Shown here one piece after another: positions 16,121 to 64,000 of a stretch of 64,000 nt of DNA. Within the stretch, counting starts at the first letter, position 1; each line of letters starts with the position of its first letter. A model generated the notes under the pieces. The model had not been told where the DNA came from and searched no databases. It saw nothing but the letters and a program-made list of their open reading frames with translations. The DNA lies in contig CM126202.1 in assembly GCA_052327205.1 (NCBI GenBank), positions 351,540,001-351,604,000 on the forward strand, in the 5' to 3' direction. The DNA comes from Somniosus microcephalus (Eukaryota). A program made the translations under genes and the position numbers.

Positions 16121-19100
16121 AGAGTCATAGTCATAGAGTTATACAGCACAGAAAGAGACGCTTTGGCCCATCGTGTCCACACCGGCCATCAAGCCCTGTC
16201 TATTCTAAGCCCATTTTCCAGCACTTGGTCCATAGCCTTGTATGCTATGGCGTTTCAAGTGCTCATCTAAATGCTTCTTGAATGTTGTGAGGGTTCTTGC
16301 CTCTACCACCCTTTTAGGCAGTGAGTTCCAGATTCCAACCACCCTCTAGGTGAAAAAGTTTTTCCTCAAATCCCCTCTAAACCTCCTGCCCCTTACCTTG
16401 AAACTATGCCCCCTGGTTATTGACTAAGGGAAAAAGTTCCTTTCTATCTACCCTATCTATGCCCCTCATAATTTTGTACACCTCAATCAGGTCCCCCCTC
16501 AGCCTTCTCTGCTCTAAGGAAAACAACCCCAGCCTGTCCAGTCTCTCTTCATAGCTGAAGCCCTCCAGCCCAGGTAACATCCCGGTGAATCTCCTCTGCA
16601 CCCTCTCCAATGCAATTACATCCTTCCTATAGTGTGGCGACCAGAACTGCACACAGTATTCCAGCTGTGGCCTAACTAGCGTTTTGTACAGCTCCATCGT
16701 AGCCTCCCTGCTCTTATATTCTATGCCTCGGCTAATAAAGGCAAGTATCCCATATGCCTTTTTAACCACCTTATCTACCTGTCCTGCTGCCTTCAGGGAT
16801 CTGTGTACATGCACACTAAGGTCCCTCTGATCCTCTGTCCTTCCTAGGGTCCTACCATTCATTGTGTATTCCCTTGCATTGTTAGTCCTCCCAAAATGCA
16901 TCACCTCACACTTTTCAGGGTTAAATTCCATTTGCCATTGTTCTGCCCATCTAACCAACCCATCTATATCGTCCTGTAGCCTGAGGCTTCCCTCCTCACT
17001 ATTTACCACTCCACCAATTTTCGTGTCATCTGCGAACTTACTGATCATACCTCCTACATTCATATCTAAATCATTAATGTACACTACAAACAGCAAGGGA
17101 CCCAGCACCGATCCCTGCGGTACACCACTGGACACAGGCTTCCAGTCACAAAAACAACCAGGGGGCAAGCAACTTTAGATCTGGTCCTGTGTAACGAGAC
17201 AGGATTAATTAAAAATGTCCTAGTAAAGGATCCCCTTGGAATGAGTGACCATAACATGGTTGAATTCCATATTCAATTAGAGGGTGAGAAGGTTGGATCT
17301 CAAACAAGCATGCTAAGCTTGAATAAAGGAGACTATGAAGGTATGAGAGCGGTATTGAGTAGAGTGGATTGGGAAAATAGATTAATGGGTAAGACGATAC
17401 ATGATCAGTGGTGTACATTTAAGGAGTTATTTTACAACTTCCAAAAAAAATATATTCCACTGAGAAGAAAAGGGTGTAAAAGACAGCCATCCCTGGCTAA
17501 GTAAAGAAATTAAGGATAGTATTCGACTAAAAACAAGGGCATATAAGGTAGCCAAATCTAGTGGGAGGATAGAGGATTGGGAAAACTTTAAAAGACAGCA
17601 AAAGATAACAAAAAGATTAATTAAGAAAGGGAAGATAGATTATGAAAGTAAATTAGCAAAAAATATAAAAACAGATAGTAAGAGTTTTTATAGTTATATA
17701 AAAAGAAAAAGGGTGGCTAAAGTAAATGTTGGTCCCTTAGGATGAGACCGGGAAATTAATGGTGGGAAATATGGAGATGGCAAAAACACTGAATAAATAT
17801 TTTGTATCAGTCTTTACAGTAGAGGACACTAAGAATATCCCAACACTGGACAAACGGGGGCTATAGGGGGGGAGGAGCTAAACACGATCAAAATTACTAA
17901 GGAGGTGGTACTCGGTAAAATAATGGGACTCAAGGCGGATAAATCACCTGGACCGGATGGCTTACATCCTAGGGTCTTGAGGGAAGTGGCGGTAGGGATT
18001 GTGGATGCATTGGTAATAATTTTCCAAAACTCCCTGGACTCGGCAAAGGGTCCCGGCAGACTGGAAAACTGCTAATGTAACACCCTTATTTAAAAAGGGC
18101 AGTAGACAGAAGGCTGGAAACTATAGACCGGTTAGCCTAACATCTGTGGTAGGTAAAATTTTGGAGTCCATTATTAAGGAGACAGTAACAGGACATTTAG
18201 ATAATCATAATTTAATAGGACAAAGTCAGCATGGTTTTATGAAGGGGAAGTCATATTTGACAAATTTGCTGGAGTTCTTTGAGGAAGTAACATATAGGGT
18301 GGATAAAGGGGAACCAGTGGACGTAGTGTATTTAGACTTCCAAAAGGCATTTGACAAGGTGCCACACAAAAGATTATTGCTTAAGATAAAAAATCACGGG
18401 ATTGGGGGTAATATTCTGGCATGGATAGAGGATTGGCTATCTAACAGAAGGCAGAGAGTTGGGATAAATGGTTCATTCTCAGACTGGCAATCAGTAACTA
18501 GTGGTGTTCCGCAGGGGTCGGTGCTGGGTCCCCAACTCTTTACAATCTATATTAACGATTTGGAGGAGGGAACCGAGTGTAACATATCAAAGTTTGCAGA
18601 TGATACTAAGATGGGGGGGAAAGTAGTGAGTGAGGAGGACATAAAAAACCTGCAAGGGGACATAGACAGGCAAAAAGTGGGCAGAGATTTGGCAGATGGA
18701 ATACAATACTGGAAAGTGTGAGGTTATGCACTTTGGCAGGATAAATCGTAGAGCAAGTTATTATCTTAATGGCAAGAAACTGGAAAGTACTGAAGTACAA
18801 AGGGATCTGAGGGTCCTGGTGCACGAAACTCAAAAGGTTAGTATACAGGTGCAGCAAGTGATTAAGAAGACCAATGGAATGTTGGCTTTCATTGCTAGGG
18901 GGATAGAATATAAAAATAGGGAGGTATTGCTTCAGTTGTACAAGGTATTGGTGAGACCGCACCTGGAATACTGCATACAGTTTTGGTGTCCATACTTAAG
19001 AAAAGACATACTTGCTCTCGAGTCAGTACAAAGAAGGTTCACTCGGTTAATCCCGGGGATGAGGGGATGGACATATGAGGAGAGGTTGAGTAGATTGGGA

Positions 19101-20480
19101 CTCTACTCATTGGAGTTCAGAAGAATGAGAGGCGATCTTATTGAAACATATAAGATTGTGAAGGGGTTGGATCGGGTGGATGCGGGGAGGATGTTCCCGA
19201 TGATGGGTGAAACTAGAACTAGGGGGCATAGTCTTAGAATAAGGGGCTGCTCTTTCAAAACTGAGATAAGGAGGAACTACTTCACTCAGAGGGTGGTAGG
19301 TCCATGGAATATGCTGCCCCAAAAAGCTGTAGAAGCTACATCATTACATAAATTTAAAACAGAAATAGACAGTTTCCTAGAAGTAAAGGGAATTAAGGGT
19401 TACGGGGAGTGGGCAGGAATTTGGACATGAGTCTAGGTTTGGATCGGACATGGCCCTGTGGGTAGCGGAGCGGGCCCAGGGGCCGTGTAGCCTGATCCCG
19501 CTCCTATTTCGTGTGTCTAATTCTGTTAGATTCAGGAGATGGTTCTGTGATAGTAGATTGGCGGTTAGGATCAGATCAGCCATGATCTTATTGAATGGCG
19601 GAGCAGGCTCGAGGGGCCGATTGGCCTACTCCTGCTCCTATTTCTTATGTTCTTATAACCTTCGACCATCACCCTCTGCCTCCTGCCACTAAGCCAATTT
19701 TGGATCCAATGTGCCAAATTGCCCTGGATCCCATGGGCTCTTACCTTCTTGACCAGTCTTCCATGCGGGACTTTGTCAAAAACCTTACTGAAGTCCATGT
19801 AGACTACATCAACTGCACTACCCTCATCCACACACCTAGTCACCCCCTCGAAAAACTCAATCAAGTTGGTTAGACATGATCTCCCCCTGACAAAGCCATG
19901 CTGACTATCCTTGATTAACCCTTGCCTCTCCAAGTGGAGACAAATTCTGTCCCTCAGAATTTTTTCCAATAATTTCCCTACCACTGATGATGTTAGGCTC
20001 ACTGGCCTGTAATTCCCTGGTTTATCCCTACTACCCTTCTTGAATAATGGTACTACGTTAGCTGTCTTCCAGTCCTCTGACACCTCCCCTGTGGCCAGAG
20101 AAGTTCTGAAAATTTGTGTCAGAGCCCCTGCAATCTCCTCCCTTGCCTCACACAGCAGCCTGGGATACATTTCGTCTGGGCCTGGGGTTTATCCACTTTT
20201 AAGCCCCACTAAAACCGCTAGTACCTCCTCCCTCTCAATACTAATTTGTTCAAGTATATCACAATCCCCCTGCTTGATTTCTATGCCTACATCATCCTTC
20301 TCCATAGTGAACACAGATGCAAAATATTTATTTAAAACCTCGCCTACATCTTCCGGCTCTACACAAAGATTGCCACTTTGGTCCCTAATGGGCCCTACTC
20401 TTTTCCTGGTTATCCTCTTGCCCTTAATATACTTAGAAAACACCTTGGGATTTTTCTTTATTTTGTCCGCCAGTGTTTTT
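16121..20480 (-). mobile_element. 5'-truncated CR1 LINE split by a younger CR1 insertion
   Basis: RT ORF pieces 20189-20443, 19571-20170 and 16404-17168 are collinear; the sequence rejoins across a duplicated AACC. Confidence 0.95.
17160..19656 (+). mobile_element. 5'-truncated CR1 (same family as the full-length copy at 41079) with duplicated 3' stem-loop
   Basis: Near-identical to about 43664-46178; TSD AACC (17156-17159 / 19657-19660); (TTCTTATG)n tail. Confidence 0.96.
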
Positions 20481-37158: not shown

Positions 37159-40100
37159 CTAACTGTAACTAAGGCGTGCTGGAGGCTGCCTTTCTCTTTG
37201 GGGGTAACGCCTAGTCTCAGGAGCAGGCTCTGGCTGGCTCTCCCGTGACCCTGCAGGTGTGGCTTCCTCCCTCGATGGCACAAGAGTGGATGGTGCCTCC
37301 GTCTCAGGGTCGGACGACCAGTCCCTGCTGGAGCCCCCAGCAGGTCCTTGATCCTCTGTTTCTTGGGTTACCTGTGGTGACTGTCTTGGCAGTAACTGGT
37401 CTACATGCCATCTCCATGTTCGGTCGTCTCCGGTGCGGACTCGGTATGAAACGGGGCCCGTCTTTAAAATGACCGTAGTCGGGACCCACCACTCCGGGGT
37501 GGTGTAGTTACGCATGAGGACTTTGCCCCCCACCACAAAGTGTCATTCTTTGGACCTCTGAGCTTGTCTGCTGACTTGATCCTGCTGATTGGCGTGCACC
37601 ACTGCTTCTGTGGACGTTGGCCTCAGCAGGTCAAGGCGTGTCCGTAGCTGCCTTCCCATGAGTAGGTAAGCAGGAGATGCTCCAGTCGTAGCATGAGGCG
37701 TGTTTCGGTATTTCAGCAAGAAAGCAGTCAGACGCTGCTTTAGAGGAGCATCACTTCTTGCCGCTTTCAACGCGTGTTTCAGCGTTCTGACAAATCTCTC
37801 CACCAATCCATTCGTGGATGGATGCTAAGGTGCGGAGAACGTGTGCTGGATTCCATTGCTCTTGAGGAACTCCTCCATCTCCTGGGACGTGAACTGTGTT
37901 CCATTGTCAGTTACGATCTGCTCCGGCAGACCAAATCGCCCGAACATCTCTCTCAGAGTCTCGATGGTTTTCTCCGTAGTGGTAGTGGACATTACTGCAA
38001 CCTCCGGCCATTTGGAATGGGAGTCCACCGCGATCAGGAACATCGCTCCTTCCACTGGTCCTGCGAAGTCCAGATGGATCCGTTGCCACGTTGTCGCCGG
38101 CCATTCCCATGGATGCAGTGGCGCTGCTCTTGGAATATTCCTGGTTGTCTCGCATGATGGGCATGATTTTGCTGCAACTTCAATTTCATGATCCAGACCG
38201 GGCCACCAGCAGTAACTTCGTGCCAGCTCCTTCATCCGGACAATACCACAATGTCCTGAGTGCAGCTCGTTGAGGACATGTTTCCGCAGCTTTGGTGGTA
38301 TGATCACTTGCATGCCCCAAAGGAGGCATCCTGACGTGACAGACAACTCCTTCCCTCTTGACAGGTAAGGTAGGAGCTCAGGTGGTGCATCTGACACCCG
38401 TGATCCATCTCCTCGCATCACCCGATCCAGCACCTTGGATAGCGTAGGGTCCACTCTGGTCTCTTTCTTGACCTGCCGGGCCGTGACAGGGGCGTTGCTC
38501 ACCATGTCAAAGTAGAAAATCTTCTGCTCACAGCCTTCGGAGGGCACAGGCAGCGGAAGTCTTGACAATCCGTCCGCATTGCCATGTGCTGCTGACCTCC
38601 GGTATTTGATGTTGTAATTGTGAGCGCTTAACATCAGTGCCCAGCGCTGCATCCTGCACGCTGCCAGGGAGGGTATTCCTGTGTGTGGATCAAAGATCGA
38701 TGTCAGAGAACGATGATCCGTCAGCAAGGTGAATTTCCTTCCGAACAAGTAGTGATGGAACTTTTTGATTCCAAAGATGATGCCCAAAGCCTCTTTTTTG
38801 ATCTGCGGGTATTTCACCTCCGCCTTGCTCAGGGACCTTGACGCAAATGCAATCGGCTTCTCTTCGCCTGAGGGAAAGATGTGGGACACGACTGCGCCGA
38901 CGCCATAAGGCGACGCGTTACAGGCCAGCTGAATCTGCAACGACGGGTCAAAGTGCGTCAACACTCTGGGGTCAGTCAAAGCTGCTTTGGCTTTCTTGAA
39001 TGCAGCTTCGCACTCCTTCGTCCACGCCCAGGCCTTGCCCTGACACAGCAACTCATGTAATGGCTTCAACAGTGATGCCAGCTGTGGAATAAACTTTCCG
39101 TAATAGTTCAGGAGACCTAAGAATGACCGCAGCTGGCCGACATTTGTAGGTGCAGGAGCGTCGGCAATGGCTTTCACTTTCGACAGTGCTGTGTGTAGGC
39201 CATCCGCGTCGATGACATGGCCTAGGTACTCCACTGATGGCTTGAAAAATTCGCATTTGTCCTTGCGAATGCGTAAGCCATATTCTTCAAGTCTTCCCAG
39301 TGTCTTCATCAGGTTCTGCAGATGCTCGTTGTCATCCTTTCCTGTGACAAGCATATCGTCGAGATAACATTGTACCCCTGGAATGCCGCTTAAGATCTGG
39401 TCCATAGCCCGCTGAAACAATGCTGGTGCTGACGTTATACCAAAGGGTAGGCGACAGTACCTGTAGAGGCCCTTGTGGGTGGTGATGGTGAGGTACTTCT
39501 GTGAGTCCTCTTCTACATGCATCTGCAAGTAGGCTTGGCATAGATCAAACTTGCTAAACTTCTGACCGCCTGCTAGACCCGCGAAAAGATCTTCAATGAT
39601 GGGGAGGGGGTACTGTTCAGCTGAGAGAACAGGATTCACTGTTACTTTGAAATCTCCACATAAGCGAACCGCGCTGTCACTCTTCATCACTGGTACCACG
39701 GGCGTGACCCACTCACTGTGCGAAACCAGCACCAGGACCCCTATCTTGACCAGACGCTCCAGGTCAGCCTCCACCTTTGGTCTGAGGGCGTAGGGAATGT
39801 TCCTGGGCTTCAGGAATCGTGGCTGGCTGTCAGGCTTCACCTTGAGTTTGACCGTAATCCCCTTCATACTCCCCAATTCTCCGTCAAAGACAGCCGCATG
39901 CTTTGTCAACACTGCCGCTATCCCCGCCTCTTCGACTGACACCGCATTCACTTTTTTCCAATCCAGATGAATTTTCTCCAACCATGGCCTGCCCATCAGG
40001 GATGGATAGTCACCCTTGACCACGTAAACTGGCAGCATCACGGTTTGTCCATTAAGCTCCACCTTGACCTCCGTCTTACCCAGCATTGGGACTGTTTCCC

Positions 40101-41077
40101 CAGTGTAGGTCTTTAAGATGAGCTTGGCCGGCGTCAGTGATAGATGGTTCAGTTTTTCTTTGAATAGCTTCACTAAAATCAAGGAGACAGCGGCTCCCAT
40201 ATCCAGCTCCATTTTGACCAGTATTCCCTCTAGTAGTGGAGTGACTCCATAGCCTGATGAGCCTCCATTCACCGTTAACACATGGAGATTCAGCTCCCCA
40301 TCAGAGTCTGTGTCACTGTCTTCCTGTTCTTGTTTCACCATGTGTAGGTTTTTCTTTTTAGAACGCCAGTTGGATGTGTTTCCTTGTTTGTTTTTGTGTG
40401 TCTCTGTGTAGGATTGTTTGCTTTGCCCTTTACACAAACGTTCAATGTGTCCTTTCTTTTCACATTTCCGACAGGTCAGGTCTTTACACCAACAGTCCGA
40501 TGGCTGATGACCTGACCTTCCACATCTGTAACACTCTCTGGCGCCCCTTGCATGCTTATCCGGTGTAGCTGCTACCCTGTGCACTCTAGTTGCAGCCCCC
40601 AGCAGCTGTGCATCTTTAGCTGCTAACTCCATAGACACAGCGAGCTCCACTGCTGATTTAAGCATCAGTTTGTCAGTCGTGAGCAAGCGCTTCTGTGTTG
40701 CTTCACATCTTAATCCACACACAAACCTATCACGGACAGTGTCATTTAGAGTTTCACCAAACTCACAATGCTCAGTTAGCTTCTTTAGCACTGCAACATA
40801 TTCGGCTATGGACTCACCCTCCCCTTGGTTTCATTTGTGAAACCTGAACCTCTCGGCAATCAGCAGCGGCTTGGGTGTGAAATGTGTTTCTAAAACTTCC
40901 ACAATCTGATCATATGTCTTAGCGCCGGGCTTATCCGGGTGCATCAAACTCCGTAATAAGCCAAATGTTTTTGCTCCGATCACACTGAGGAACGTCGTCA
41001 CTTTCACGTCATCTTTAATGCCATTTGCAGTCACGAAAAATCCAAAACGCTCTGTATAAGCACTCCATTGCTCTGCC
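37159..41077 (-). pseudogene. Gypsy gag-pol single reading frame (ATG at 46219, beyond the CR1)
   Basis: CCHC knuckles, protease LDMGA, RT YLDD, RNase H, integrase HHCC and DDE; one frame throughout with three in-frame stops (40831, 37825, 37543). Confidence 0.95.
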
Positions 41078-41205
41078 GAGCAGCGCGGCAGAGTGACTAC
41101 AAGAGGCCCCAGAGGCTCAGGTAGGCCTCAGTGCGGCATCGGCAGCGGCGGGAGGCGGAGCAGCGCGGCAGAGCGACTACAAGAGGCCCCAGAGGCTCAG
41201 GTAGG
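41078..41205 (+). repeat. 80-bp tandem repeat (1.6 units) at the CR1 5' end
   Basis: GAGCAGCGCGGCAGAG(T/C)GACTACAAGAGGCCCCAGAGGCTCAGGTAGG at 41078 and 41158. Confidence 0.9.
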
Positions 41206-41994
41206 TGTTCCAATCTCAGGCAAGGAGAGAGGTAAAAAGTATTCAAGGTGTGACGTCACCACAAAACAGGTAGGTGATTGGTTGGAGTATTTCTCTCATT
41301 TTAAAACTTTAAGTCTGTGGTTTATAGTTTTTAAGGTTGCTGTGGTGTACCAGGGACAGTTTGTAAACCAGTGCCCTTAAATATATCATTTAACTGTAGT
41401 GAAATTGGTGGGATTCATTTAATTTTAATTAATTAGTTAAAGGGTAAGTGCGAGTCATCAAAGAGTGCTGTGAGTTTGGGTAAGAGTGAGAGTTCTTTAA
41501 TTGTTATTTCTCTTTAAATCATTCTTGATAAGATTACTTTAAGCAGTTTAAGTAAAGGGGAAAAGTTAAATATTTGGGATTCTGTTGGTTTAAGAAGAGT
41601 AAAACAAGGTTACACTGCAGTAGGAGTAAATTGGCACAGCAGGCAGTGGAAACCAGTTTTCTAACCAATCAGCAGGGGTGACTCATTTGGCTGTAAACAA
41701 ACAAACAGTATAAAAAGACCAGTCCTAGTGCGAGCAAGCACTGAGTGCAAGTCATCAAAGATTGCTGTGAGTTAGGGTAAGTGGGGTGTTAGGTGCTCTT
41801 TTCAAACTTTAACTCTGTGGGTTGTAGTTAATAAGGCCTTTCTGGTGCAGAGTGACTGTTGGTAAACCATTTAACTGGTGTAACTAGAGGGATTGATTTA
41901 ATTTAAATCCAATTAATTAAAGGGGATACTAGCATCTAAAATCGGGCAGAGGGTGTCCATAACTAACAATAAAAAATTTAATTAATTACATAGA

Positions 41995-42948
41995 ATGGAG
42001 CAGGTGATGTGTTACTGTTGCAAGATGTGGGAGCCAGTGAACCCCATTGAGGCTCACGGTGATTACGTCTGTGACAAATGTCTGCTGCTATAGGAACTCC
42101 AGCTCCATGTTGATGAGCTGGAGTCTGAGCTTCAGACACTGCGACACATCAGGGAGGGGGAGAAGTATCTGGACTCTGTGTATCAGGAGGTGGTCACACC
42201 TATGAAGTTAAGTAATTCAGATGTAGCCCATGGTCAGGGACAGGACGGTGTGACTACGAGTGAGGCAGGTACGGGGATCCAGGAGGTAGAGCTGGAGGAG
42301 CCGCAGCACTTGCTCTTGACCAACAGGTTCGAGGTTCTTACTCCCTGTGGGGACAGGAGCAGGGACTGCAGGGAGGATGAGCAACCTGGCCACAGCACCG
42401 TGGAACGGGGGGCCATTCAAGAGGGGGGAGTAAATAGAAATGTTGTAGTGGTAGGGGATAGTATTATTAGGGGGATAGATAGAGTTCTCTGCAGCCGAGA
42501 GCGAGAGTCCCGAAGGCTGTGTTGCCTACCCGGTGCCAGGGTTAAGGACATCTCCTCTGGGCTGGAAAGAAACTTGCAGTGGGAGGGGGTGGATCCAGTT
42601 GTCGTGGTCCATGTTGGTACAAACGACGTAGATAGGACTAGGAAGCCGGTTCTGTTAAAGGAGTATGAGCAGCTAGGGGTCAAATTAAAAAACAGAACCT
42701 CAAGGGTAATAATCTCTGGATTATTACCTGAGGCACGAGCGAATTTGGCTAGGACAAATAAAATTAGAGAGTTAAATGCGTGGCTCAAAGACTGGTGTGG
42801 GTGAAATGGGTTTTGCTTCCTGGGACACTGGCACCAGTACTGGGGCAGGAGGGAGCTGTTCCGTTGGGACGGGCTTCACTTGGCCAGTGCTGGGACTAGA
42901 GTCCTGGCGGATCATATAACTAGGGCTGTAGAGAGGGCTTTAAACTAA
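41995..42948 (+). pseudogene. CR1 ORF1 (zinc finger, coiled coil, SGNH esterase) with two in-frame stops
   Basis: MEQVMCYCCKMWE...CDKC; VVGDSIIR, CLPGA, VHVGTND, DGLH motifs. Confidence 0.9.
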
Positions 42949-43119
42949 CTAGTCGGGGGGGAGGTTCCTAGAGAGCAAATAATAAAAATGACAACAGAGA
43001 AGGTCATAGACTTAGGTAGCAGTGGGGAAATTAAAAACCAGAGCATGTCAGGAAGGGGCAGAAGGTATGGAGTAAAAGGTAAAGTAATAAAAAGGGCAAA
43101 AGCAGGAACTAAGTGTCAC

Positions 43120-45944
43120 AAAACATATTTGAAAGTTCTCTATCTGAATGCATGTAGCATTTGTAACAAAATAGATGAGTTAATGGCACAAATAACTACA
43201 TATGGGTATGATCTTGTGGCCATTACAGAAACATAGCTGCAGGGTGACAATGCCTGGGAATTAAACATACCAGGTTATTTAATGATCAGGAAGGACAAGC
43301 AGGAAGGAAGGGGAGGTGGGGTGGTTATGTTAATAAAGGAAGGAATCACTAATACAGAGAAATGATATTGGGTCAAAAGATCAGGATAATGAAACAGTTT
43401 GGGTGGAGGTAAGGAATAATAAGGGGGAAAAAACACTAGTGGGCATAGTCTATAGGCCTCCTGTTGGATGGAGTTGCAACTCTGTTGGACGGAGTATCAA
43501 TCAGGAAATAGTTGAGGCTTGTAATAAGGGAACATCTATAATTATGGGGGATTTTAACTATCATATTAATTGGACAAATCAAATTGGGCAGGGCTGCCTT
43601 GAGGATGAGTTCACTGAGTGTATTAGGGATGGGTTTCTTGAGCAGTATGTAACTGAACCGACCAGGGGGCAAGCAACCTTAGATCTGGTCCTGTGTAACG
43701 AGACAGGATTAATTAAAAATGTCCTAGTAAAGGATCCCCTTGGAATGAGTGACCATAACATGGTTGAATTCCATATTCAATTAGAGGGTGAGAAGGTTGG
43801 ATCTCAAACAAGCATGCTAAGCTTGAATAAAGGAGACTATGAAGGTATGAGAGCGGAATTGAGTAGAGTGGATTGGGAAAATAGATTAAAGGGTAAGACG
43901 ATATATGATCAGTGGTGTACATTTAAGGAGTTATTTTACACCTTCCAAAAAATATATATTCCACTGAGAAGAAAAGGGTGTAAAAGAAAAGACAGCCATC
44001 TGTGGCTAAGTAAAGAAATTAAGGATAGTATTCGACTAAAAACAAGGGCATATAAGGTAGTGAAATCTAGTGGGAGGATAGAGGATTGGGAAAACTTTAA
44101 AAGACAGCAAAAAATAACAAAAAGATTGATTAAGAAAGGGAAGATAGATTATGAAAGTAAATTAGCAAAAAATATAAAAACAGATAGTAAGAGTTTTTAT
44201 AGTTATATAAAAAGAAAAAGGGTGACTAAAGTAAATGTTGGTCCCTTAGAGGATGAGACCGGGAAATTAATGGTGGGAAATATGGAGATGGCAAAAACAC
44301 TGAATGAATATTTTGTATCAGTCTTTACAGTAGAAGACACTAAGAATATCCCAACACTGGACAAACAGGGGGCTATAGGGGGGGAAGGAGCTAAACACGA
44401 TCAAAATCACTAAGGAAGTGGTACTCGGTAAAATAATGGGACTCAAGGCGGATAAATCACCTGGACCTGATGTCTTACATCCTAGGGTCTTGAGGGAAGT
44501 GGCACTAGGGATTGTGGATGCATTGGTAATAATTTTCCAAAACTCCCTGGACTCAGCAAAGGTCCCGGCAGATTGGAAAACTGCTAATGTAACGCCCTTA
44601 TTTAAAAAGGGCAGTAGACAGAAGGCTGGAAACTATAGACCGGTTAGCCTAACATCTGTGGTAGGTAAAATATTGGAGTCCATTATTAAGGAGACAGTAA
44701 CAGGACATTTGGATAATCATAATTTAATAGGACAAAGTCAGCATGGTTTTATGAAGGGGAAGTCATGTTTGACAAATTTGCTGGAGTTTTTTGAGGAAGT
44801 AACATATAGGGTGGATAAAGCGGAACCAGTGGATGTAGTATATTTAGACTTCCAAAAGGCATTTGACAAGGTGCCACACAAAAGATTATTGCTTAAGATA
44901 AAAAATCACGGGATTGGGGGTAATATTCTGGCATGGATAGAGGATTGGCTATCTAACAGAAGGCAGAGAGTTGGGATAAATGGTTCATTCTCAGACTGGC
45001 AATCAGTAACTAGTGGTGTTCCGCAGGGGTCAGTGCTGGGTCCCCAACTCTTTACAATCTATATTAACGATTTGGAGGAGGGGACCGAGTGTAACATATC
45101 AAAGTTTGCAGATGATACTAAGATGGGAGGGAAAGTAGTGAGTGAGGAGGACATAAAAAACCTGCAAGGGGACATAGACAGGCTAAGTAAGTGGGCAGAG
45201 ATTTGGCAGATGGAATACAATACTGGAAAGTGTGAGGTTATGCACTTTGGCAGGATAAATCGTAGAGCAAGTTATTATCTTAATGGCAAGAAACTGGAAA
45301 GTACTGAAGTACAAAGGCATCTGGGGGTCCTGTTGCACGAAACTCAAAAGGTTAGTATGCAGGTGCAGCAAGTGATTAAGAAGGCCAATGGAATGTTGGC
45401 TTTCATTGCTAGGGGGATAGAATATGAAAATAGGGAGGTATTGCTTCAGTTGTACAAGGTATTGGTGAGACCGCACCTGGAATACTGCATACAGTTTTGG
45501 TGTCCATACTTAAGAAAAGACATACTTGCTCTCGAGTCAGTACAAAGAAGGTTCACTCAGTTAATCCCGGGGATGAGGGGATGGACATATGAGGAGAGGT
45601 TGAGTAGATTGGGACTCTACTCATTGGAGTTCAGAAGAATGAGAGGCGATCTTATTGAAACATATAAGATTGTGAAGGGGTTGGATCGGGTGGATGCGGG
45701 GAGGATGTTCCCGATGATGGATGAAACTAGAACTAGGGGACATAGTCTTAGAATAAGGGGCTGCTCTTTCAAAACTGAGATGAGGAGGAACTACTTCACT
45801 CAGAGGGTGGTAGGTCCATGGAATATGCTGCCCCAAAAAGCTGTGGAAGCTACATCATTACATAAATTTAAAACAGAAATAGACAGTTTCCTAGAAGTAA
45901 AGGGAATTAAGGGTTACGGGGAGCGGGCAGGAATTTGGACATGA
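43120..45944 (+). pseudogene. CR1 ORF2 (APE endonuclease and RT), with a stop and frameshifts
   Basis: LYLNA..I.NK, AITET, VYRPP, GDFN, SDHN; 508-aa intact RT part 44418-45944. Confidence 0.95.
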
Positions 45945-46651
45945 GTCTAGGTTCGGATCGGTCATGGCCCTATGGGTAGCGGAGTAGGCCCAGGGGCCGT
46001 GTAGCCTGATCCTGCTCCTATTTCGTGTGTCTAATTCTGTTAGATTCAGGAGATGGTTCTGTGATAGTAGATTGGCGGTTAGGATCAGATCAGCCATAAT
46101 CTTATTGAATGGCGGAGCAGGCTCGAGGGGCCGATTGGCCTACTCCTGCTCCTATTTCTTATGTTCTTATGTTCTTATGTTTCATCAAATGGTCCAAACG
46201 CTCCGGTTAGCATAGCCATTTTGTTATTTTTTTTTTTCTTTACAGTCCTTTTCCTCCACTTCGTTTCACTGTATCATTACTCTCCCCCTTCTTATTTGTG
46301 TAACACACGAACCGCCACCTTTACGAGGCGATTGCATCAGCACTAAACTGCGGGCACGCCATTAAGAAAACACAGGAACTTCTTACTTTAAACATCGCCG
46401 ATTCCAGTGCAAAGTGATGCGCAAGTCCGTCGTCCTCGTCACCAGTTTTGTTGTGTCTCAAGGGGTTTTATACCCTTACCAATATAACAATTAAGAAGGA
46501 CTCTGGCGTGGAGAGTTTAGTTAACGGCCATTTTATTTACTATGTGCTTCTTCACTCAATGCACTACATTTCCCATAGTGCATTGCAAATCACCACTACG
46601 GCATCCCATGTGGGACAATTCTAATACACATTCAAAATACACAACAATGCT

Positions 46652-47911: not shown

Positions 47912-50900
47912 TGTTATGTTCATTAATAACTAGACATTCTTATTATGAACAGCTAGCTTCTAGCTAGTCATTTATTCAGTACATGTTCTCTAGGTACAGC
48001 ATCTGTAGAGATTCAGCATGTGTACTTCTGTGTGCAGGCAGCCATCTTGACTACTGCCTTCTGGGTAGCCTAGTGCATCATGGATAGTGTAGTCTTAAAC
48101 ACATACAACTATATACACGGCAATACAGCTCTACGGCTCCATCTAGTGTACCACTCTAGAATGACATGTTATTGATCATTACATCCCCCTTTCTTTGAGG
48201 TTAAACAAAATCAATATCAATCAACTTACAAGAAACATGATAAAGAAGATATCAGTAACAATTTTGTTAGTGCTCTATAAACATAAACATTTTCACAACA
48301 GTCAACACATTTTCAAAGCTTTACTTTATACTCAAAGATTAAGTCTATCAGGCTTTTTTACTTCATGTGTGGATCTTCTCAGCACGGGTAAGTCTGATGT
48401 GTTTGCATGAGATTGTTCTGGTGGTGATTGACAAGATTCAGTTGCGGCATTGTCATCAATCTGCTCTTGGATAGTTTCTTGTGTCTTCAGGAGGGAACGG
48501 CGGTTCCTCCTGAGAATCTGTCCTTCCTCAGTTCTAACAGTGTATGACCTTGGTCCTACTTCCTCAAGAACTGTAGCTTTCCTGTTCCATGCATCTGGAT
48601 CCTCAATCCTGACAACATCATCCCTTGTCAATGGTTTTAGAGTTTTGGACGACTTGTCATAGTAAGATTTCTGTTTCAGCTTTAACAGTTGAATTCTCTG
48701 TCTTAGTTCCTTACTTTGCTTTTCTTTTGCACAGCAGGGTAGCGTGGTGTGCAACTTGCGACCCATTAGTAGTTCAGCAGGTGAAGAACCAGAGTCTAAA
48801 GGTGAGGCTCGGTAGCTCAGCAGGGCGAGATAAGGATCAGACTTGCCTTCTGTCGCTTTCTTCAGTAGCTGCTTGAGAACTTGAACACCTTTCTCTGCCT
48901 TACCATTTGACTGAGCATACAAAGGACTGGATGTGATGTGCTGAAAGTCATAATGTGCTGCAAACTGTTGCCACTCCTTACAGTTGAAGCACGGACCATT
49001 GTCGCTAATGGCAATCCTGGGAATTCCATGTCTGGCGAAGATGGATTTCACATGCATTATGACACTGCTTGCTGATGTGCTTGAGAGCAGCGCCATCTCA
49101 GGATAGTTAGAATAGTAGTCAATCACTATTAGATATTCTTTACCATTCAAATGAAAAAGGTCCATACCAACCTTTTGCCATGGTGCTGTTGGTATGTCAG
49201 CTACTATCATTGGTTCCTTTGCTTGTTTGTTTTGGTGTTTCTGACATGTCTCACATTTGCCTATCACGTTCTCAATGTCCTTATTTATGCCAGGCCAATA
49301 AACAGTGTCTCTTGCTCTCCTTTTGCATTTTTCAATTCCGAGGTGTCCCTCATGGATCTTTTTGAGCATGTCTTGACGTAGAGCCTGTGGAATGACTATT
49401 CTGTTCTGTTTTATTAATAGTCCACTTACGACACTCAACTCTGACCTTATGTGAAAGTATTTTGGACAGGAACCTTTTGGCCAACCATGATGAATGTTCT
49501 CTATAACTGTTTGTAACACTGTATCTTTTACTGTTTCTTCTGCTATTGGCTTTGATTTTCTGTCTGACATGGGCAGCGCAGCAGTGACCATACTCACATG
49601 AACATCCACGTCTTCTTCAATAGAGCTCACATGACTCATTGTGGGTGCTCGGGATAGTGCATCTGCTAACACTATGTATTTGCCTGGTGTGTAGATCAGT
49701 TCAAAGTCATATCTTTGCAGCTTCATCATGAGTCATTGAATCCTTGGAGACATCTCATTCAGATTTTTTTTTATGATGGCAACCAGTGGGCTGTGGTCTG
49801 TCTCAACTGTGAAGGTGGGAAGTCCATATATGTAGCCATGGAACTTTTCTAATCCAACTACCAAGCCTAGACATTCCTTTTCAATCTGGGCGTATCGACA
49901 CTCAGTATCAGTCATAGACCTGGAGGCATAGGCAACAGGCTTCCAATCTTCACCCTCTGCTTGTAGCAAGACCGCGCCTAGGCCATCCTTTGATGCATCC
50001 GTTGACACTTTGATTCTCTTTGTTGGGTCAAAGAAGGTGAGTACAGGTGTGGTTGTCAGCACTGTTTTGAGATTCATCCACTCTTGTTCATGTCTTTCTG
50101 TCCATGTGAACTCATTTGTTTTATGTAGCAGGTCTCGCAGACAGGTTGTCTTGGCTGACAAGTTAGGAATGAACTTTCCAATGAAGTTTATCATCCCCAT
50201 GATGCGTAGCACTCCTTTTTTTCAGTGGGTCGGGGCATGTTGAGTATGGCGTTTACTTTTTCCATATCTGGCTCTATTCCTTTACCAGATAGATTATCTC
50301 CTAGGAAAGTGACTTCCTCGACGCCAAACTGACACTTGGCTTTGTTGAGCTTCAATCCATTCCGGCGTATGCTCTGTAGCACTTTAGTCAGTCTGTCATT
50401 GTGTTCTTTCAGTGTGGAGCCCCAGATGATGATGTCATCAACATAGACCCGAACTCCTTCCAGACCTTCAATTATGTGTTCCATCGCTCTATGAAAGATT
50501 TCAGATGCAGATATTATCCCGAAAGGCATTCTGAGGAATCAGTACCTGCCAAATGGTGTGTTGAAGGTACAGTATTTGGTGCTCTCTTCATTCAGTTTTA
50601 GTTGCCAAAATCCTTGTGAGGCATCAAGCTTTGTAAAGTATCTGGCACCTGACATTTCACTGGTGATTTCTTCTTGCTTGGGAATCTGGTAGTGTTCACG
50701 TTTTATGTTTGCATTTAAGTCCTTTGGATCCATGCATATTCTTAGATCATTGTTCTTTTTCTTTACACATACCATGGAGTTAACCCAGTCTGTTGGCTCT
50801 TCGACTTTCCTGATGACTCCGTGTGGTCATTCTGTCCAGTTCTTTCTTGAGCCGGTCATGCAGGGGTGCTGGAACTCTTCGTGGAGCATGTACCACTGGC

Positions 50901-52584
50901 TGAGCATCCTCCTTTAGCTGGATCTTGTAAGTGAATGGTAGAACTCCAAATCCTTTGAACACATCCTGGAAATTACTCACTGCATAATCCACTGAGTCAT
51001 CTGGTCTGCTTATGGCACAGTTTATACGGTAGACTCTCTTGACCAGTTCTAAGTCTTCACAAGCTTTGTCACCTAGTAGTGAATCAAGTCCTTCAGCCAC
51101 AACAGAAAACATGAGATGATGCACTTTGTCTTTGACTGTCACTTTAAGTCTGCATACACCTAAGCTATCTATTTTCTGTCCATTATAGTTCTTCAGTAGT
51201 ACTGACTTTTTCTGTATTTTGGGCTTTTCTTTCATATTTTTAATGTCACTCATACTGATTAAGTTTGCTTTTGCCCCAGTGTCTAGTTTCAATGTAACTA
51301 ATGCTCCATTTACCTGCAGTGGGATCATTCATTTGTCCTCTTTTACTGCATTAACTTTATGTTCAGCATTGTTTATTCCTGAGGGCTGCACATTTTCTGT
51401 ATCCTTTTCTATATTGTCACATGACACCATTCCTACAAAAAATGCCTCACTTAAATCAGTGTCTTCAATCACATTGACTTGGACTTGTTGCCCTTTCTTT
51501 GTTTTTACTTTTGAAAAGCATTGTTTGACAAAGTGATTCTTTCCATGACATTTTGTGCACATTTTCCAAACGCTGGGCATTGTTTTAACTGGTGTTTGTA
51601 ACCACAGCGTTTACAATTAAAAATTTCATCCTTCGATTGCTTTTCATTTCTGTTCTGCCCACGTTTCTTTCCTTTGTAGGACACAGCACCAACAGCAGCA
51701 CTGACTACAATCGCATCATTATTAATTTCACTGAAAGTTTTCGCATGCTTTTGAGCTAGCTCACTGGCTTGGCATATTTTCACAGCATTTTCCAATGTTA
51801 GTTCGGTTTCTCTCAACAGATGTTCCCTGACCCTTTTATCCTGAATACCAAACACAATCTGGTCACGAATCATGGACGCTTTCAGTTCAGAGAAATTACA
51901 TGTCTGTGCTTTCAGTTTCAGATCGGTCACAAAGCTATCAAAAGTCTCATTTTGCTGCTGTGTCCTTGAACAGAACACGTATCTTTCATAGGTCTCATTC
52001 TTTTTGCGAGAACAATGTGTATCAAATTTCTTTAGCACATCGTCTAAATTTTCTCTGTTCTCCTCTGGATTAAATACAAATGTATTAAATACCTCTATCG
52101 CCTGCGGGCCTGCAACCGTGAGCAGCAACGCTATTTTCCTTGTGTCTGGCTTCGTACTGAACCTGATGGCAGCAATGTAGAGTTCGAATTGTTGTTTGAA
52201 AGTCCGTCAATTGTAGTCGACATTCCCCGTGAGATTCAAAAACTCCAGTGGCTTCAAATTCTCCATGCCGCGTTTCACAATCTTCAGCAGAACTTCACCA
52301 ATCCTGGTACCATGTTATGTTCATTAATAACTAGACATTCTTATTATGAACAGCTAGCTTCTAGCTAGTCATTTATTCAGTACACGTTCTCTAGTTACAA
52401 CATCTGTAGAGATTCAGCATGTGTACTTCTGTGTGCAGGCAGCCATGTTGACTACTGCCTTCTGGGTAGCCTAGTGCATCATGGGTAGTGTAGTCTTAAA
52501 CACATACAACTATATACACAGCAATACAGCTCTACGGCTCCATCTAGTGTACCACTCTAGAATGACATGTTATTGATCATTACA
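47912..52584 (-). mobile_element. Complete Gypsy LTR retrotransposon (degenerate ORFs)
   Basis: 272-bp LTRs 47912-48183 and 52313-52584 (6 differences by eye), TSD GAAGG, PBS TGGTACCAGGATTGG (52298-52312, tRNA-Leu(TAA)-like), PPT next to 48184. Confidence 0.97.
48332..52266 (-). pseudogene. Gypsy gag-pol with several frameshifts and stops
   Basis: gag (SMIRDQIVFG), protease LDTGA, RT YVDD, RNase H TDASK, integrase 48332-49729. Confidence 0.93.
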
Positions 52585-53232: not shown

Positions 53233-53890
53233 GTTCAAAACAGGACATGTTGTGTGCATGGCGATGTGCAGTATTACCCTACTACTATCGAGACTTTAGA
53301 GTATGATGAGAATTCAACGTGATACAGAGCCAGTTTATACCCCTAAGGGGCAAGAGCTCTACTTGCCAAAATAAAAAGCCACGAACAACTAAAGAGGCAA
53401 GAGACAGAATAAAATTAAAAGAAAAAGCATACAAAAATGCAAAATCCAGCACAGATCCTGGCAACTACGAGAGATAAAAGACCAACAAAAGGTGACAAAA
53501 CAGATAGTAAGAGCTACAAAAAGGGAGTATGAAAAGAAACTTGCAAGGGATATCAAAATCAACACAAAAATGTTTTACAATTATATTAGGAAAAAGAGGG
53601 TGGTCAGGAGAAATGTTGGCCCCTTGAAAACTGATAATGGTGATATTGTCAATGATAAAAAGAAATGGCGGATATGTTGAATAATTACTTTGCGTGAGTA
53701 TTTACAGTAGAGGATGAGGATAGCATGCCAGAAATTCCAAGGAAACTAATATAAGAACGTAAGAACATAAGAAATAGGAGCAGGAGTAGGCCAATCGGCC
53801 CCTCGAGCCTGCTCCACCATTCAATAAGATCATGGCTGATCTGATCCTCACCTCAAATCTTCTATCACTCTCCATCCCACCCGAACCCAT

Positions 53891-54009
53891 GTGACCTCCC
53901 GGGAGAGGCGAAAAACCAGATAAAAAACCCAATGGCCAATTTGGGAGAAAAAATCTGGGAAATTCCTCTCCGACCCATCTAGGCGATCGAAACTCTTCCA
54001 GGAGATCAC
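53891..54009 (-). other. Structured RNA element (double U-rich internal loop, ENE-like) in the CR1 3' UTR
   Basis: Nested stems GUGAUCUCCUGG/CCGGGAGGUCAC, GAGAGG/CCUCUC, CCAGAU/AUCUGG and CCCAA/UUGGG separated by opposed U-tracts; folded by eye. Confidence 0.6.
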
Positions 54010-54871
54010 TCTGTCCCTATATTTTCTACAGTACTTACCTTCTGTAAAGGCAATCTCCACCCCAGCCAGGAACAGGAATAAAACCATCTCCTGAAATCTA
54101 ACACAGAATTAGAACACAAGAAGTAGGAGCAGAACCAGGCTACACGGCCCCTGGGCCCGCTCCACTACTCACAGGGCCATGACCATTCTGAACCTAGACT
54201 CATGTCCAATTTCCTGCCCGCTCCCCGTAACCCTTAATTCCCTTTACTTCTAGGAAACTATCTATTTCTGTTTTAAATTTATTTAATGATGTAGCTTCCA
54301 CAGCTTTCTGGGGCAGCAAATTCCACAAATCTACCACCCTCTGAGTGAAGAAGTTTCTCCTCATCTCAGTTTTGAAAGAACAGCCCCTTATTTTAAGATT
54401 ATGCCCCCTAGTTCTAGTTTCACCCATCATTGGGAACATCCTCACCGCATCCACCCGATCAAGCCCCTTCACAATCTTATATGTTTCAATAAGATCGCCT
54501 CTCATTCTTCTGAACTCCAATGAGTAGAGTCCCAATCTACTCAACCTCTCCTCATATGACCACCCCCTCATCCCCGGGATTAACTGAGTGAACCTTCTTT
54601 GTACTGACTCGAGAGCAAGTATGTCTTTTCTTAAGTATGGACACCAAAACTGTATGCAGTATTCCAGGTGCGGTCTCACCAATACCTTGTATAACTGCAG
54701 CAATACCTCCCTGTTTTTATATTCTATCCCCCCTAGCAATAAAAGCCAACATTCCATTGGCCTTCTTGATCACTTGCTGCACCTGCATACTAACTTTTTG
54801 AGTTTCATGCACCAGGACCCCCAGATCCGTTTGTACTACAGTACTTTCCAGTTTCTTGCCATTAAGATAAT

Positions 54872-55636
54872 GGCCCAGACCTTGGTGTCGGGGGCTTGCC
54901 GCGCGTGCAAGCCCTCGATCTGCACTCACCCTGCGCGCTGACATCTGAAGCCCGGGCCTGCTTGCATTTCTTGTCACAGGCCCGGTTCAAATGTCAGCGC
55001 GCAGTGCTTACCTGATCCAGCGGCGTAGTTAGTGCGATGTGCCAGCTGGGATCAGGTGAGCACTGTACAACCAATCAGGGGAGGGGAAGGTTCATTCATG
55101 AGTTTGAGAGTAAGAACTGTCAAACTCATGAAAACTACGGGGGCCCAAAACACTATTTAAACTTTAAATACAAATTTAAAAAACATCCCAATCATTAAAT
55201 TAAGTATAAATAAGTTAAAAAAAATAATTTAAACAATAATTTTTTTTTTTGAAAAAAATAAATTTTTAATAAAAAGGGTCTAAAACTAAACTTATCTTAT
55301 TGTAGATTCTTTAAAATAATAAACCTGTGGGAAATTTTTTTCTAAATTACACTAAAACACCACTTACCTGTAAAAATAAATACTTACGTGTGCTTTTTAC
55401 AAGCGTAAAGACCGGAGGCCTTTACACATGCGCAAATCCCCCAAAAAGGAGGAAATCCAAGATGCACGCGCTGCCCCCTACAGCGCACGTGATAGCCTCT
55501 TCACCTCTTGGGTTAGAGGAGAGGAAATGCCGGTTTTCAGCGCATGCGCTGTGCATGCTGAAAACCGGCATTTCCTCCGGCCAGACGCGTGAGTACCCCT
55601 TCCGTACTCACGCGTTTGGGGAGGAATTTCTGCCCC
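54872..55636. mobile_element. Non-autonomous DNA transposon (Harbinger-like MITE)
   Basis: Clean insertion in CR1 with 3-bp TSD AAT; ends GGCCCAGACCTT / GGAATTTCTGCCCC; GC-rich arms, AT-rich core. Confidence 0.8.
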
Positions 55637-60325: not shown

Positions 60326-60922
60326 GGGGGAAAAATTGAATTGGTTTGTGCCTCTCGTTAGCGCCCCCTGGGAGGTTAGCGGCGGTGGCGGTAGCCGGTA
60401 GCGCCCCGCTTGCGCCCCAGCCGCAAACTTCCCTTGCGCCCCCTGACCTATCACTGGACGATCTGTGCGACAGGATCAGGGGGCGGTTTTGCAACGGCGG
60501 CGACGCTAGTTAAAGGGGCAGGTGTTGGTCGGCCATTTTTATTGTGGCTGACTGCCAGCACCTGCCCCCTTTCGCTTTTGTATGCGGGGTGCCGGCCGCG
60601 ATCACTCAGCCTGGCACTGCCAGGCTGTTTTCCCGGCACCCAACTCCCGGGTAGTCCGGCAGGGGCCCGGTGTGTGCAGGGGAGGAGGCCTGCAATGACA
60701 CAGCGCTATGTGCCGTCCACGCGTGGCGCTGATGGACATAGCGGCGTGAAATTCAGTAGTAGCGCCCAAGCAGGAGGGGGAGCACTTTCCAGTAGCACCC
60801 CACCTCCTGCTTGGGGTGCTACTACTGAATTTATGGCGGAGGGGCGCTAACTTTTTCGGGGCACTAAAATTGGCGCCCCGGCGACGTTAGTGCCTCAAAA
60901 GGGGCGCCACCCAATTTTCCCC
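60326..60922. mobile_element. GC-rich Harbinger-like MITE
   Basis: Ends GGGGGAAAAATTG / CAATTTTCCCC; many GCGCC/GCGCTA motifs; related to 61130-61816. Confidence 0.7.
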
Positions 60923-60934
60923 ACTCAATACTTA

Positions 60935-62165
60935 ACATGTTCAACCAAAGCAAGCAACAAAGCCGATTGAATTTTCAACTATTTAATTAAAACGTTAGAA
61001 TACAAGTCAGAGGAAGTCCTTGTCCCTTTCAGGTCACTGAGACAGAAGGGAGACATTCAAGTGCTGGAAGCTGTGCAGACAAGAGCCACAAAACTGCGAT
61101 AGTATTAGAATTATGAAGAGAGGCTTGGGGGGGGGGGGTGGAATTCAGTGGTGCCCTCTTTGGGTGCTAACTTCGCCGGGGCACTAATTTAAGTTAGCAC
61201 CCCTGCGCCATAAGTTCAGTAGTAGTGCCACAAGCAGGAGGCGGGGCGCTACTGAAAAGCGCTCCCCCTCCTTCTTGGGGCGCTATCAGTGAATTTCGCA
61301 GCACTACGTGCAACAACGCCACGCGTGACGGCACATAGCACCACATCAGTGTAGGTCTCCTCCCCCGATTAAAGGAGAGAGGCCTAGCGCTGCAATCACC
61401 GGGGCCCTGCTGCACCACTGGGGAGCGGGGTGCCGGATAAACAAGAGGAGTGCCGGGCTGAGCGGTCGCGGCCAGCACCCCACATACAGAGGTAAGAAGG
61501 AGCAGGTGCTGGCAGTTGGCCAAAAGAAAAATGGCTGCCCGGCACCTGCCCTTTAATTTGCGCCGTCGCTGCTGCCAAAACGCCCCCTGAACCAGTCGGA
61601 CATATCATCCAGCGATAGGCACAAGGGAAGTTTGATGTCATCACCGGCGGCGCAGGGCAGTGCCCCGGGGTGCTACCGGCCACCGCCGCCGCTAACCTCC
61701 CGTTGAATTTCGCGGGAGGTGTTAGCGGCATTGCGCCCAGGCGCTAGGGGCTTTGTGCTCCCTTAGCGAGCCCTGGGGGCGCTAACAGGAGGCGCAAAGC
61801 AACCCAATTTTCCCCCTTGGACTTTCAGCCGTGAAAGGAGGTGTCTGTAAGCTGATTTTACAGAGCTGTACACGATAGTGAACAGTACAGAAAAGATAAA
61901 TCTGGAGAAATATTTTAAATTACTAGAGTAGAACAGGGACACCGGTTCAAATGAGTAAAAGGCAAATTTCAGACTGATATGAGGAAATTTCACAAAGAGT
62001 GATTAACTTGGAATGGACTCATGGATTCAATAGTGGAAGCAAGGATCCTAGAATCATTTAAGAACCAATTGGTTTTGCAATGGAGGACTTTATGGTTATT
62101 CTACATAGATGAACTAAGATGGGCTAAATGGCCTTCTTTATCCATAGTAATCTTGTGACCTTGAG
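60935..62165 (+). mobile_element. Old CR1 3' fragment interrupted by a MITE
   Basis: EYKSEEVL, DIQVLEAVQTRATK and YEERL before the MITE; CR1 C-terminus and stem-loop after 61817. Confidence 0.6.
61130..61816. mobile_element. GC-rich Harbinger-like MITE, inverted relative to 60326-60922
   Basis: Ends GGGGGTGGAATT / CAATTTTCCCCC; reverse complement aligns in blocks with the 60326 copy. Confidence 0.75.
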
Positions 62166-63838: not shown

Positions 63839-64000
63839 TAAGAACATAAGAAATAGGAGCAGGAGTAGGCCAATCGGCCCCTCGAGCCTGCTCCACCATT
63901 CAATAAGATCATGGCTGATCTGATCCTAACCTCAAATCTTCTATCACTCTGCATCCACCCGAACCCATGTGATCTCCCGGGAGAGGCGAAAAACCAGATA
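63839..64000 (-). mobile_element. CR1 3' end with the ENE-like cassette (cut by the window end)
   Basis: Near-identical to 53760-53922. Confidence 0.92.

Follow-up and report, generated by a model that had tools for sequence, protein, structure and literature searches.

An RNA structure with two stacked U-rich internal loops in CR1 LINEs of a shark and of ray-finned fishes, a candidate clamp on A-rich RNA

Introduction

What could a compact RNA structure with two stacked U-rich internal loops contribute to a LINE that encodes no poly(A)? This question is raised by a module on the minus strand of positions 53891-54009 in a 64,000-nt stretch of Somniosus microcephalus DNA (the window). The original prediction had placed this module in the 3' UTR of a CR1 element and had likened it to double ENEs (dENEs). 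ENEs are known in viruses, in MALAT1-type lncRNAs, and in plant, fungal, slime-mould and stickleback retroviral elements (PMC7583470). Their described signature is opposed U-tracts between G-C-closed helices (PMC7583470, PMC8704770, PMC12707130, PMC13541005), and they lie mostly near 3' ends (PMC13541005). The parts of the review literature searched name no LINE among the listed ENE hosts. At the level of titles and abstracts, no description of an ENE-like element in CR1 was found; the supplementary lists of the primary ENE surveys could contain one.

Structure of the module

The minus strand of 53891-54009 carries the very letters quoted in the original prediction, and the 12-bp basal stem, the side hairpin and the two stacked internal loops proposed there are all present in the minimum-free-energy fold. 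The module is a three-way junction composed of the basal stem P1, an 8-nt linker, the side hairpin P2, and an arm made up of P3-P5 that contains both U-rich internal loops. On the minus strand, P1 pairs 53998-54009 with 53891-53902, P2 occupies 53971-53989, and the purine strand of P3 (53965-53970) pairs with 53903-53908, its G-C pairs closing the lower loop. The 5' strand of this loop (53959-53964) consists of AA, three U and C; its 3' strand (53909-53915) consists of five U and a CG dinucleotide. Next come the 6-bp middle stem P4 (53953-53958 with 53916-53921), the upper loop, in which five U, C and U (53946-53952) face six U (53922-53927), and the C-G-closed upper stem P5 of 5 bp with an 8-nt apical loop (53928-53945). 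Opposed U-tracts had been claimed for both loops. They are evident in the upper one (five U versus six U); the lower loop of the window copy is not a clean U-tract pair, because of the AA, three U and C on its 5' strand.

The fold of the module is non-random. Its free energy is -47.5 kcal/mol (z = -3.57), none of 200 shuffles was equally good, and the fold was retained in all three larger sequence contexts. The plus strand of the site has a fold of its own (z = -3.07, equalled by 2 of 200 shuffles), in which the G-U pairs are broken and which is weaker than that of the minus strand. Pair probabilities are 0.89-1.0 for P1 and about 0.7 for P4 and P5, which flank the upper loop. For P2 and P3 they are just 0.44-0.58 (about 0.49 for the purine strand of P3), and both helices are partly missing from the centroid. 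The stability of the enclosing 213-nt segment (53869-54081, minus strand) is unremarkable (z = -1.06; 29 of 200 shuffles as good). A descriptor of two stacked opposed-U loops, written once the element had been seen, matched one place in the window, the module site, none in 60 block-shuffled windows, and 2 of 20,000 shuffles of the module.

A small hairpin at 54033-54053 (minus strand) contains, as its 3' arm, a consensus 5' splice donor, AAG/GTAAGT, at 54041-54033. The sole run of at least four A in the 3' UTR of the window copy lies at 54022-54025 on the same strand; none occurs between the module and the element end. No poly(A) signal was found in the 3' UTR of the module-bearing CR1. The start of the segment (54051-54086) faintly resembles the 3' end of the module with its flank (53866-53918). 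An internal duplication of this 3' flank upstream was rejected, as 100 of 2000 shuffles scored equally.

The host CR1 and its sister copies

The placement in a CR1 3' UTR was upheld by protein matches and by Pfam domains on a sister copy. The module-bearing copy is 5'-truncated at about 54871 and retains the C-terminal part of ORF2 (54200-54871, minus strand). A near full-length sister CR1 (41078-46170, plus strand), which is 93.5% identical to it, encodes an esterase ORF1 and an ORF2 with endonuclease and reverse transcriptase; through this sister, the host can be recognized as a canonical vertebrate CR1 with a short-repeat tail. Among the 120 protein matches listed, elasmobranch proteins are the most identical named ones (63-69%), CR1 proteins of birds, turtles and coelacanth share about 40-55% identity, and other matches, not among the named proteins, reach 74%. 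By sequence, the host can be assigned to the elasmobranch-type CR1 LINEs.

The young 3' tail of the host (53757-53860, minus strand) comprises a stem-loop (about 53777-53815) and TTCTTATG-type repeats, without poly(A). Short-repeat ends instead of poly(A), as originally stated for CR1, were present in all seven CR1 tails examined; poly(A) tails in this group are described as unique to Zenon (PMC13343379). The distance from the module to the 3' end of the element is about 134 nt, close to the quoted value of some 140 nt without matching it exactly. The 3' UTR contains, in this order, a decayed tail copy (54111-54195, minus strand; 79% over 62 nt), a spacer, the 213-nt segment and the young tail. 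A decayed, older tail in tandem with a young one was observed here and also at 45944-46170 (plus strand), which suggests capture of another element's 3' end.

A second module-bearing copy (63839-64000, minus strand) shares 97.5% identity over 163 nt and is cut by the window end. Within its module part (63969-64000), the G-to-A change described originally was confirmed as the sole difference over 32 positions. As evidence for a preserved pair it is weak, because the pairing strand falls beyond the window end.

The module is optional in CR1, since a sister subfamily lacks it. Namely, the near full-length sister and a second sister copy (17157-19656, plus strand) are 97% identical to each other, and the same 213 nt are missing from both at the same junction. 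A 5-nt repeat, GATGG, is located close to both segment junctions. This repeat would fit a microhomology deletion, as one possible direction of change. In the simplest scenario, read-through would have produced a chimera whose first tail gave way to a second CR1 3' end bearing the module. The differences from the module-bearing copy that are shared by the sisters affect 10 codons synonymously and 10 non-synonymously out of 175. As a rule of thumb, roughly one in four would be synonymous under neutral change; the higher share suggests that both lineages were active.

These copies bear on the claim that the module is a 3'-end-capturing device or a required 3' signal. Recognition by the LINE reverse transcriptase, or capture of the element's own 3' end for priming, would suit the position of the module in the window, and stringent LINEs are described to recognize 3' structures (PMC4176376). 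Such a role is nevertheless very unlikely: the segment is missing from two of the three copies that span the region, one of them nearly full length, a separate tail stem-loop is common to both subfamilies, and in four fish consensuses the module is located at the 5' end (see below). The claim was not supported. Because two sister copies lack the whole 213-nt segment, the module is not regarded as a reverse-transcriptase signal. It shares with the tail stem-loops of stringent LINEs (UnaL2, ZfL2, CR1, and shark HER1/HE1) the property of being structured RNA in a LINE 3' UTR (PMC4316615, PMC4176376, PMC3747384), but the tail role belongs to the stem-loop at 53777-53815, and the module is located upstream, larger and dispensable.

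Several other elements were observed in the window. A Gypsy-type LTR retrotransposon frame of 1001 codons (37825-40830, minus strand), with zinc knuckle, reverse transcriptase, RNase H and integrase domains, is located directly upstream of the full-length CR1, whose 5' UTR (41075-41995, plus strand) contains internal tandem duplications. A broken Gypsy-type element (47912-52584) with pieces of protease, RNase H and integrase on the minus strand is flanked by 272-nt direct repeats, 97.8% identical and probably LTRs. An inverted repeat at 60370-61701 (71% over 589 nt) is possibly a fold-back DNA transposon, and shorter palindromes are present at 54931-55063.

The module in CR1 consensuses of ray-finned fishes

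The whole architecture was found in four CR1 consensuses, those of Albula (bonefish), Aldrovandia (halosaur), Megalops (tarpon) and Polypterus (bichir). They are rows 8, 9, 374 and 538 of Table S2 in PMC13343379, which lists 1,003 consensuses; a minority of its rows were viewed, each over its first 400 nt. A motif from the 3' flank of the lower loop matched 10 places, four of them with the whole architecture; motifs from the 5' flank matched 24 places and recovered the same four. The rows were judged by eye, without folding, and three of the four belong to related elopomorph teleosts. The flanks of the lower loop are partly selected, because the search motifs came from them; P1, P2, P4, P5 and the upper loop are independent of this selection.

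By-eye pairing of the helices was nearly complete. P1 is paired at 10 of 11 positions in tarpon and bonefish and at 10 of 10 in bichir and halosaur; P3 at 7 of 7 in tarpon and bichir and at 6 of 7 in bonefish and halosaur; and P4 at all positions (three in halosaur, four in each of the others). Three unrelated sequences form P4: CCAGAU/AUCUGG in the window, CCAC/GUGG in tarpon, and AAAG/CUUU in bichir. P5 is fully paired in bichir (5 of 5 positions), extended and bulged in tarpon and bonefish, and imperfect in halosaur. P5 shows two A-U to U-A swaps between the window and bichir; two-sided swaps occur in P3 too. In bichir and tarpon, P2 has a loop of 5 nt and a single bulged G; the bulged G is missing in halosaur, and in bonefish P2 is poorly formed. 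Read in this way, P1-P5 stay paired despite sequence change across shark/ray, bichir and three elopomorph teleosts.

The unpaired parts are also conserved. The upper loop has 5-8 U on each strand in all five sequences (the window and the four fishes), and the lower loop in all four fish rows has AA and four U facing four to five U and CG. In all five, P3 ends in G-C pairs and the linker between P1 and P2 opens with AA. P5 opens with two C-G pairs in four of the five, halosaur being mismatched at the second place. The apical part is unconserved in the fishes, ranging from 3 nt to a long arm. Covariation and conservation of the U-tracts, on whose presence among other copies the original prediction had been staked, were thus both seen by eye in the four fish consensuses. 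A kissing interaction between the loop of the side hairpin and the apical loop was considered and rejected; the apical loop of bichir has 3 nt and is unrelated, and the CC pairs inside P2.

The module is a real, conserved RNA structure. A neutral origin, by chance or from a decayed inverted repeat, would agree with its dispensability in the sister subfamily, the modest z-score of the 213-nt segment (-1.06) and the post hoc nature of the descriptor. The compensatory changes seen by eye in every helix across distant fish lineages, and the mere 2 of 20,000 module shuffles that match the descriptor, make it exceedingly improbable. We assign the same very low probability to an undescribed ribozyme or another catalytic or ligand-binding RNA. 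Its three-way junction, conserved bulged G and invariant loop flanks would be in keeping with such a role, and ribozymes are known in non-LTR elements (PMC8501958). However, no Rfam match speaks for it with E-values as high as 10 admitted, U predominates among the conserved nucleotides, and cleavage at the module would separate ORF2 from the tail. In Rfam as a whole, the window gave no match at the gathering threshold, and the best one over the module had 14.4 bits (E = 6.5).

In the fishes, the module lies some 100-300 nt from the 5' end of consensuses of 4.5-5.8 kb, and no CR1 tail follows it in the part in view. The site is taken to be the 5' UTR, with the orientation judged from other rows that open with ORF1. 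Four of the 10 ray-finned CR1 heads viewed contain the module; several of the other six are truncated. It was present in none of four coelacanth heads (first 400 nt, the 3' UTRs lying beyond view) and in none of the eight shark, ray or chimaera heads met, many of them truncated and likewise without their 3' UTRs in view. Further motif variants in the fish table revealed no new module among 20 of 47 occurrences. Frog and turtle CR1 3' UTRs presumably carry it as well. One Xenopus row has a short stretch before the tail that weakly resembles the 3' end of the module; nothing beyond this row was found in the available part of the amniote CR1 alignment, from which the authors had trimmed the relevant part of the UTR (PMC4316615). 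The squamate CR1 supplement, as far as accessible (PMC11303007), contained no occurrence of the motif.

Searches beyond CR1 collections were negative. In prokaryotic genomes, scanned for stray copies of vertebrate origin, three matches (L001-L003, position 2501-2537) to the 5' half of the motif were seen; they are considered chance matches because none has the 3' half or any similarity to CR1. Plasmid and phage collections contained no match to the module, and the texts of papers none to its motif. A covariance model built from the window copy detected no further full copy in the window or in the three prokaryotic loci; its next best match (E = 0.11) was the opposite strand of the module site.

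Splicing signals near the module

A comparable donor-bearing hairpin was recognized by eye in the halosaur and tarpon rows. By eye, donor-like words were also recognized upstream of the module in tarpon, bonefish and halosaur. Downstream of it, bichir, bonefish and tarpon have pyrimidine tracts, of which those in bichir and bonefish end in AG (likewise by eye). Donor-like words also occur near the start of several other vertebrate CR1 consensuses. Candidate binders of U-rich RNA are proteins of the TIA-1 or hnRNP C type. The module might thus be a regulator of splicing or retention, whose U-loops bind such proteins and which, together with the donor-masking hairpin, controls donor use without any triplex; full-length LINE RNA would be kept unspliced, or sorted between nucleus and cytoplasm. 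The consensus donor in the hairpin directly upstream of the window module, the signals around the fish modules and the 5' location suit this explanation. On the other hand, such proteins need U runs that are single-stranded, whereas the module offers opposed, symmetric loops within a conserved frame of five helices; the window copy has no acceptor downstream of the module; and words resembling a donor abound in CR1 5' UTRs without the module (11 loose matches in 41070-42000). Reporter protection from HUSH silencing is, in the accessible part of PMC8770142, not due to splice sites. We regard regulation of splicing as rather unlikely. Protection from HUSH by the donor of the module, also considered, is unsupported by the same source (PMC8770142).

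Comparison with known ENEs

The likeness to ENEs and dENEs was borne out: the architecture agrees with the definitions given in the reviews, as far as these are accessible (PMC7583470, PMC13541005). As in ENEs generally, an upper loop of five and six U is flanked by stems with pair probabilities of about 0.7, and G-C pairs stand beside the loops, as for A-minor contacts. As in dENEs, two U-rich loops surround a short duplex, P4, of 6 bp in the window and 3-4 bp in the fishes. The loop base carries an invariant 2-nt CG and an AA; the lower domain of dENEs is described as a 3-4-nt bulge and an interrupted A-minor stem (PMC7583470). The adenosine triad of dENEs and their pocket motif for the poly(A) 3' end, defined here by the wording of a review (PMC13541005), were not seen in the module, in which two conserved A are visible.

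With the dENEs of plant and fungal transposons, such as rice TWIFB1, the module shares, according to the available descriptions, the two U-rich loops around a short duplex, G-C closing pairs, a transposon host and perhaps a bulged irregular lower domain (PMC7583470, PMC12707130, PMC13541005). In contrast to dENEs, it resides in a vertebrate non-LTR element without encoded poly(A), forms a three-way junction with a side hairpin, has conserved AA and CG with no visible adenosine triad, and is 5'-located in bony fishes. The dinucleotide bulge of the KSHV PAN ENE sits on the 3' strand. Opposed U-tracts of about five, G-C-rich stems and a basal dinucleotide bulge are common to the PAN ENE and the module (PMC13541005), but the PAN ENE has a single loop and a defined poly(A) tail close by, while the module has two loops plus an additional AA on its 5' strand. 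The MALAT1 and MEN-beta ENEs share with it a vertebrate U-rich internal loop, which there serves triplex formation; they depend on an A-rich tract that is itself encoded and on a processing signal resembling a tRNA (PMC7583470), and no such downstream tract follows the module in the window copy. The ENE of Evade (Copia93), a fold-back with four U-tracts between ORF and retrotransposon 3' end, is reported to raise RNA stability and mobility (PMC12501189). Unlike the host of the module, Evade belongs to the plant LTR elements and possesses a polyadenylated end of its own.

The module is therefore dENE-like in architecture and may work like a dENE, yet we do not class it as one, because the adenosine triad and the pocket are unmatched, the evidence from its position points both ways and its function is a candidate only. 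The relocation between 5' and 3' ends was unexpected, and poly(A) is not encoded by the host.

Proposed function

The module is best explained as an ancient RNA structure of CR1 LINEs in jawed fishes, optional but kept by selection. By analogy with dENEs, we consider it slightly more likely than not that it is a conserved clamp on A-rich RNA, the clamped strand probably being poly(A) at the end of read-through transcripts. On entering both loops, this strand would build up two short U-A-U triple stacks, with some 3-4 triples in the lower loop and some 5 in the upper one. A-minor contacts on the closing G-C pairs would go with them, and the AA/CG bulge would be an end pocket. Since CR1 encodes no poly(A), the third strand is most likely poly(A) that a read-through transcript receives at its end in flanking DNA. 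Clamping would slow deadenylation and nuclear decay, and more template would therefore survive. Reverse transcription would still begin at the tail stem-loop and repeats, so that poly(A) would not be copied. CR1-like LINEs reportedly tolerate downstream polyadenylated sequence, as in work on eel UnaL2. Slippage on the repeats is mentioned in a review (PMC3747384). Because the sister subfamily spread without it, the module would be a booster and not a requirement. Counting against the clamp are the seven of seven tails without poly(A), the missing poly(A) signal, the 5' placement in four fish rows, the three U on the lower 5' strand in the window, an adenosine triad that was not seen, and the six of 10 ray-finned heads without the module.

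By eye, A-rich runs occur directly upstream of P1 in all four fish rows. They could serve as an internal third strand in a cis triplex, in which an encoded A-tract beside the module, as in MALAT1 or a pseudoknot, completes a self-contained compact fold; the AA that opens the linker in all five sequences would also fit. We think this improbable: the single A4 run of the window 3' UTR is not long enough for two loops, the A-runs vary in position, and these UTRs are AT-rich.

The 5' placement can also be reconciled with a clamp, in a joint reading that we hold to be rather doubtful, slightly more so than the splicing regulator and less so than the cis triplex. The module and the donor-masking hairpin would form a portable cassette, moved between 5' and 3' UTRs since the split of sharks and bony fishes. 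In bony fishes the module, lying in a 5' UTR intron, would clamp the far-end poly(A) of the 4.5-kb RNA. Only unspliced full-length RNA would then be looped, stabilized and kept for reverse transcription, and spliced RNA would be translated. If true, the ENE would be independent of its position and coupled to splicing, and its host would be a LINE without encoded poly(A).

Significance

Elements of the CR1 group make up 22-34% of shark and ray genomes (PMC13343379). The subfamilies with and without the module, together with its 5' and 3' placements, make the idea of a clamp directly testable. If true, the conserved clamp on poly(A) would add a cis-acting part to those known in a major vertebrate retrotransposon, and it would be relevant to the protection of RNA in LINEs without encoded poly(A). 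The many genomic copies could also stabilize host transcripts that end nearby.
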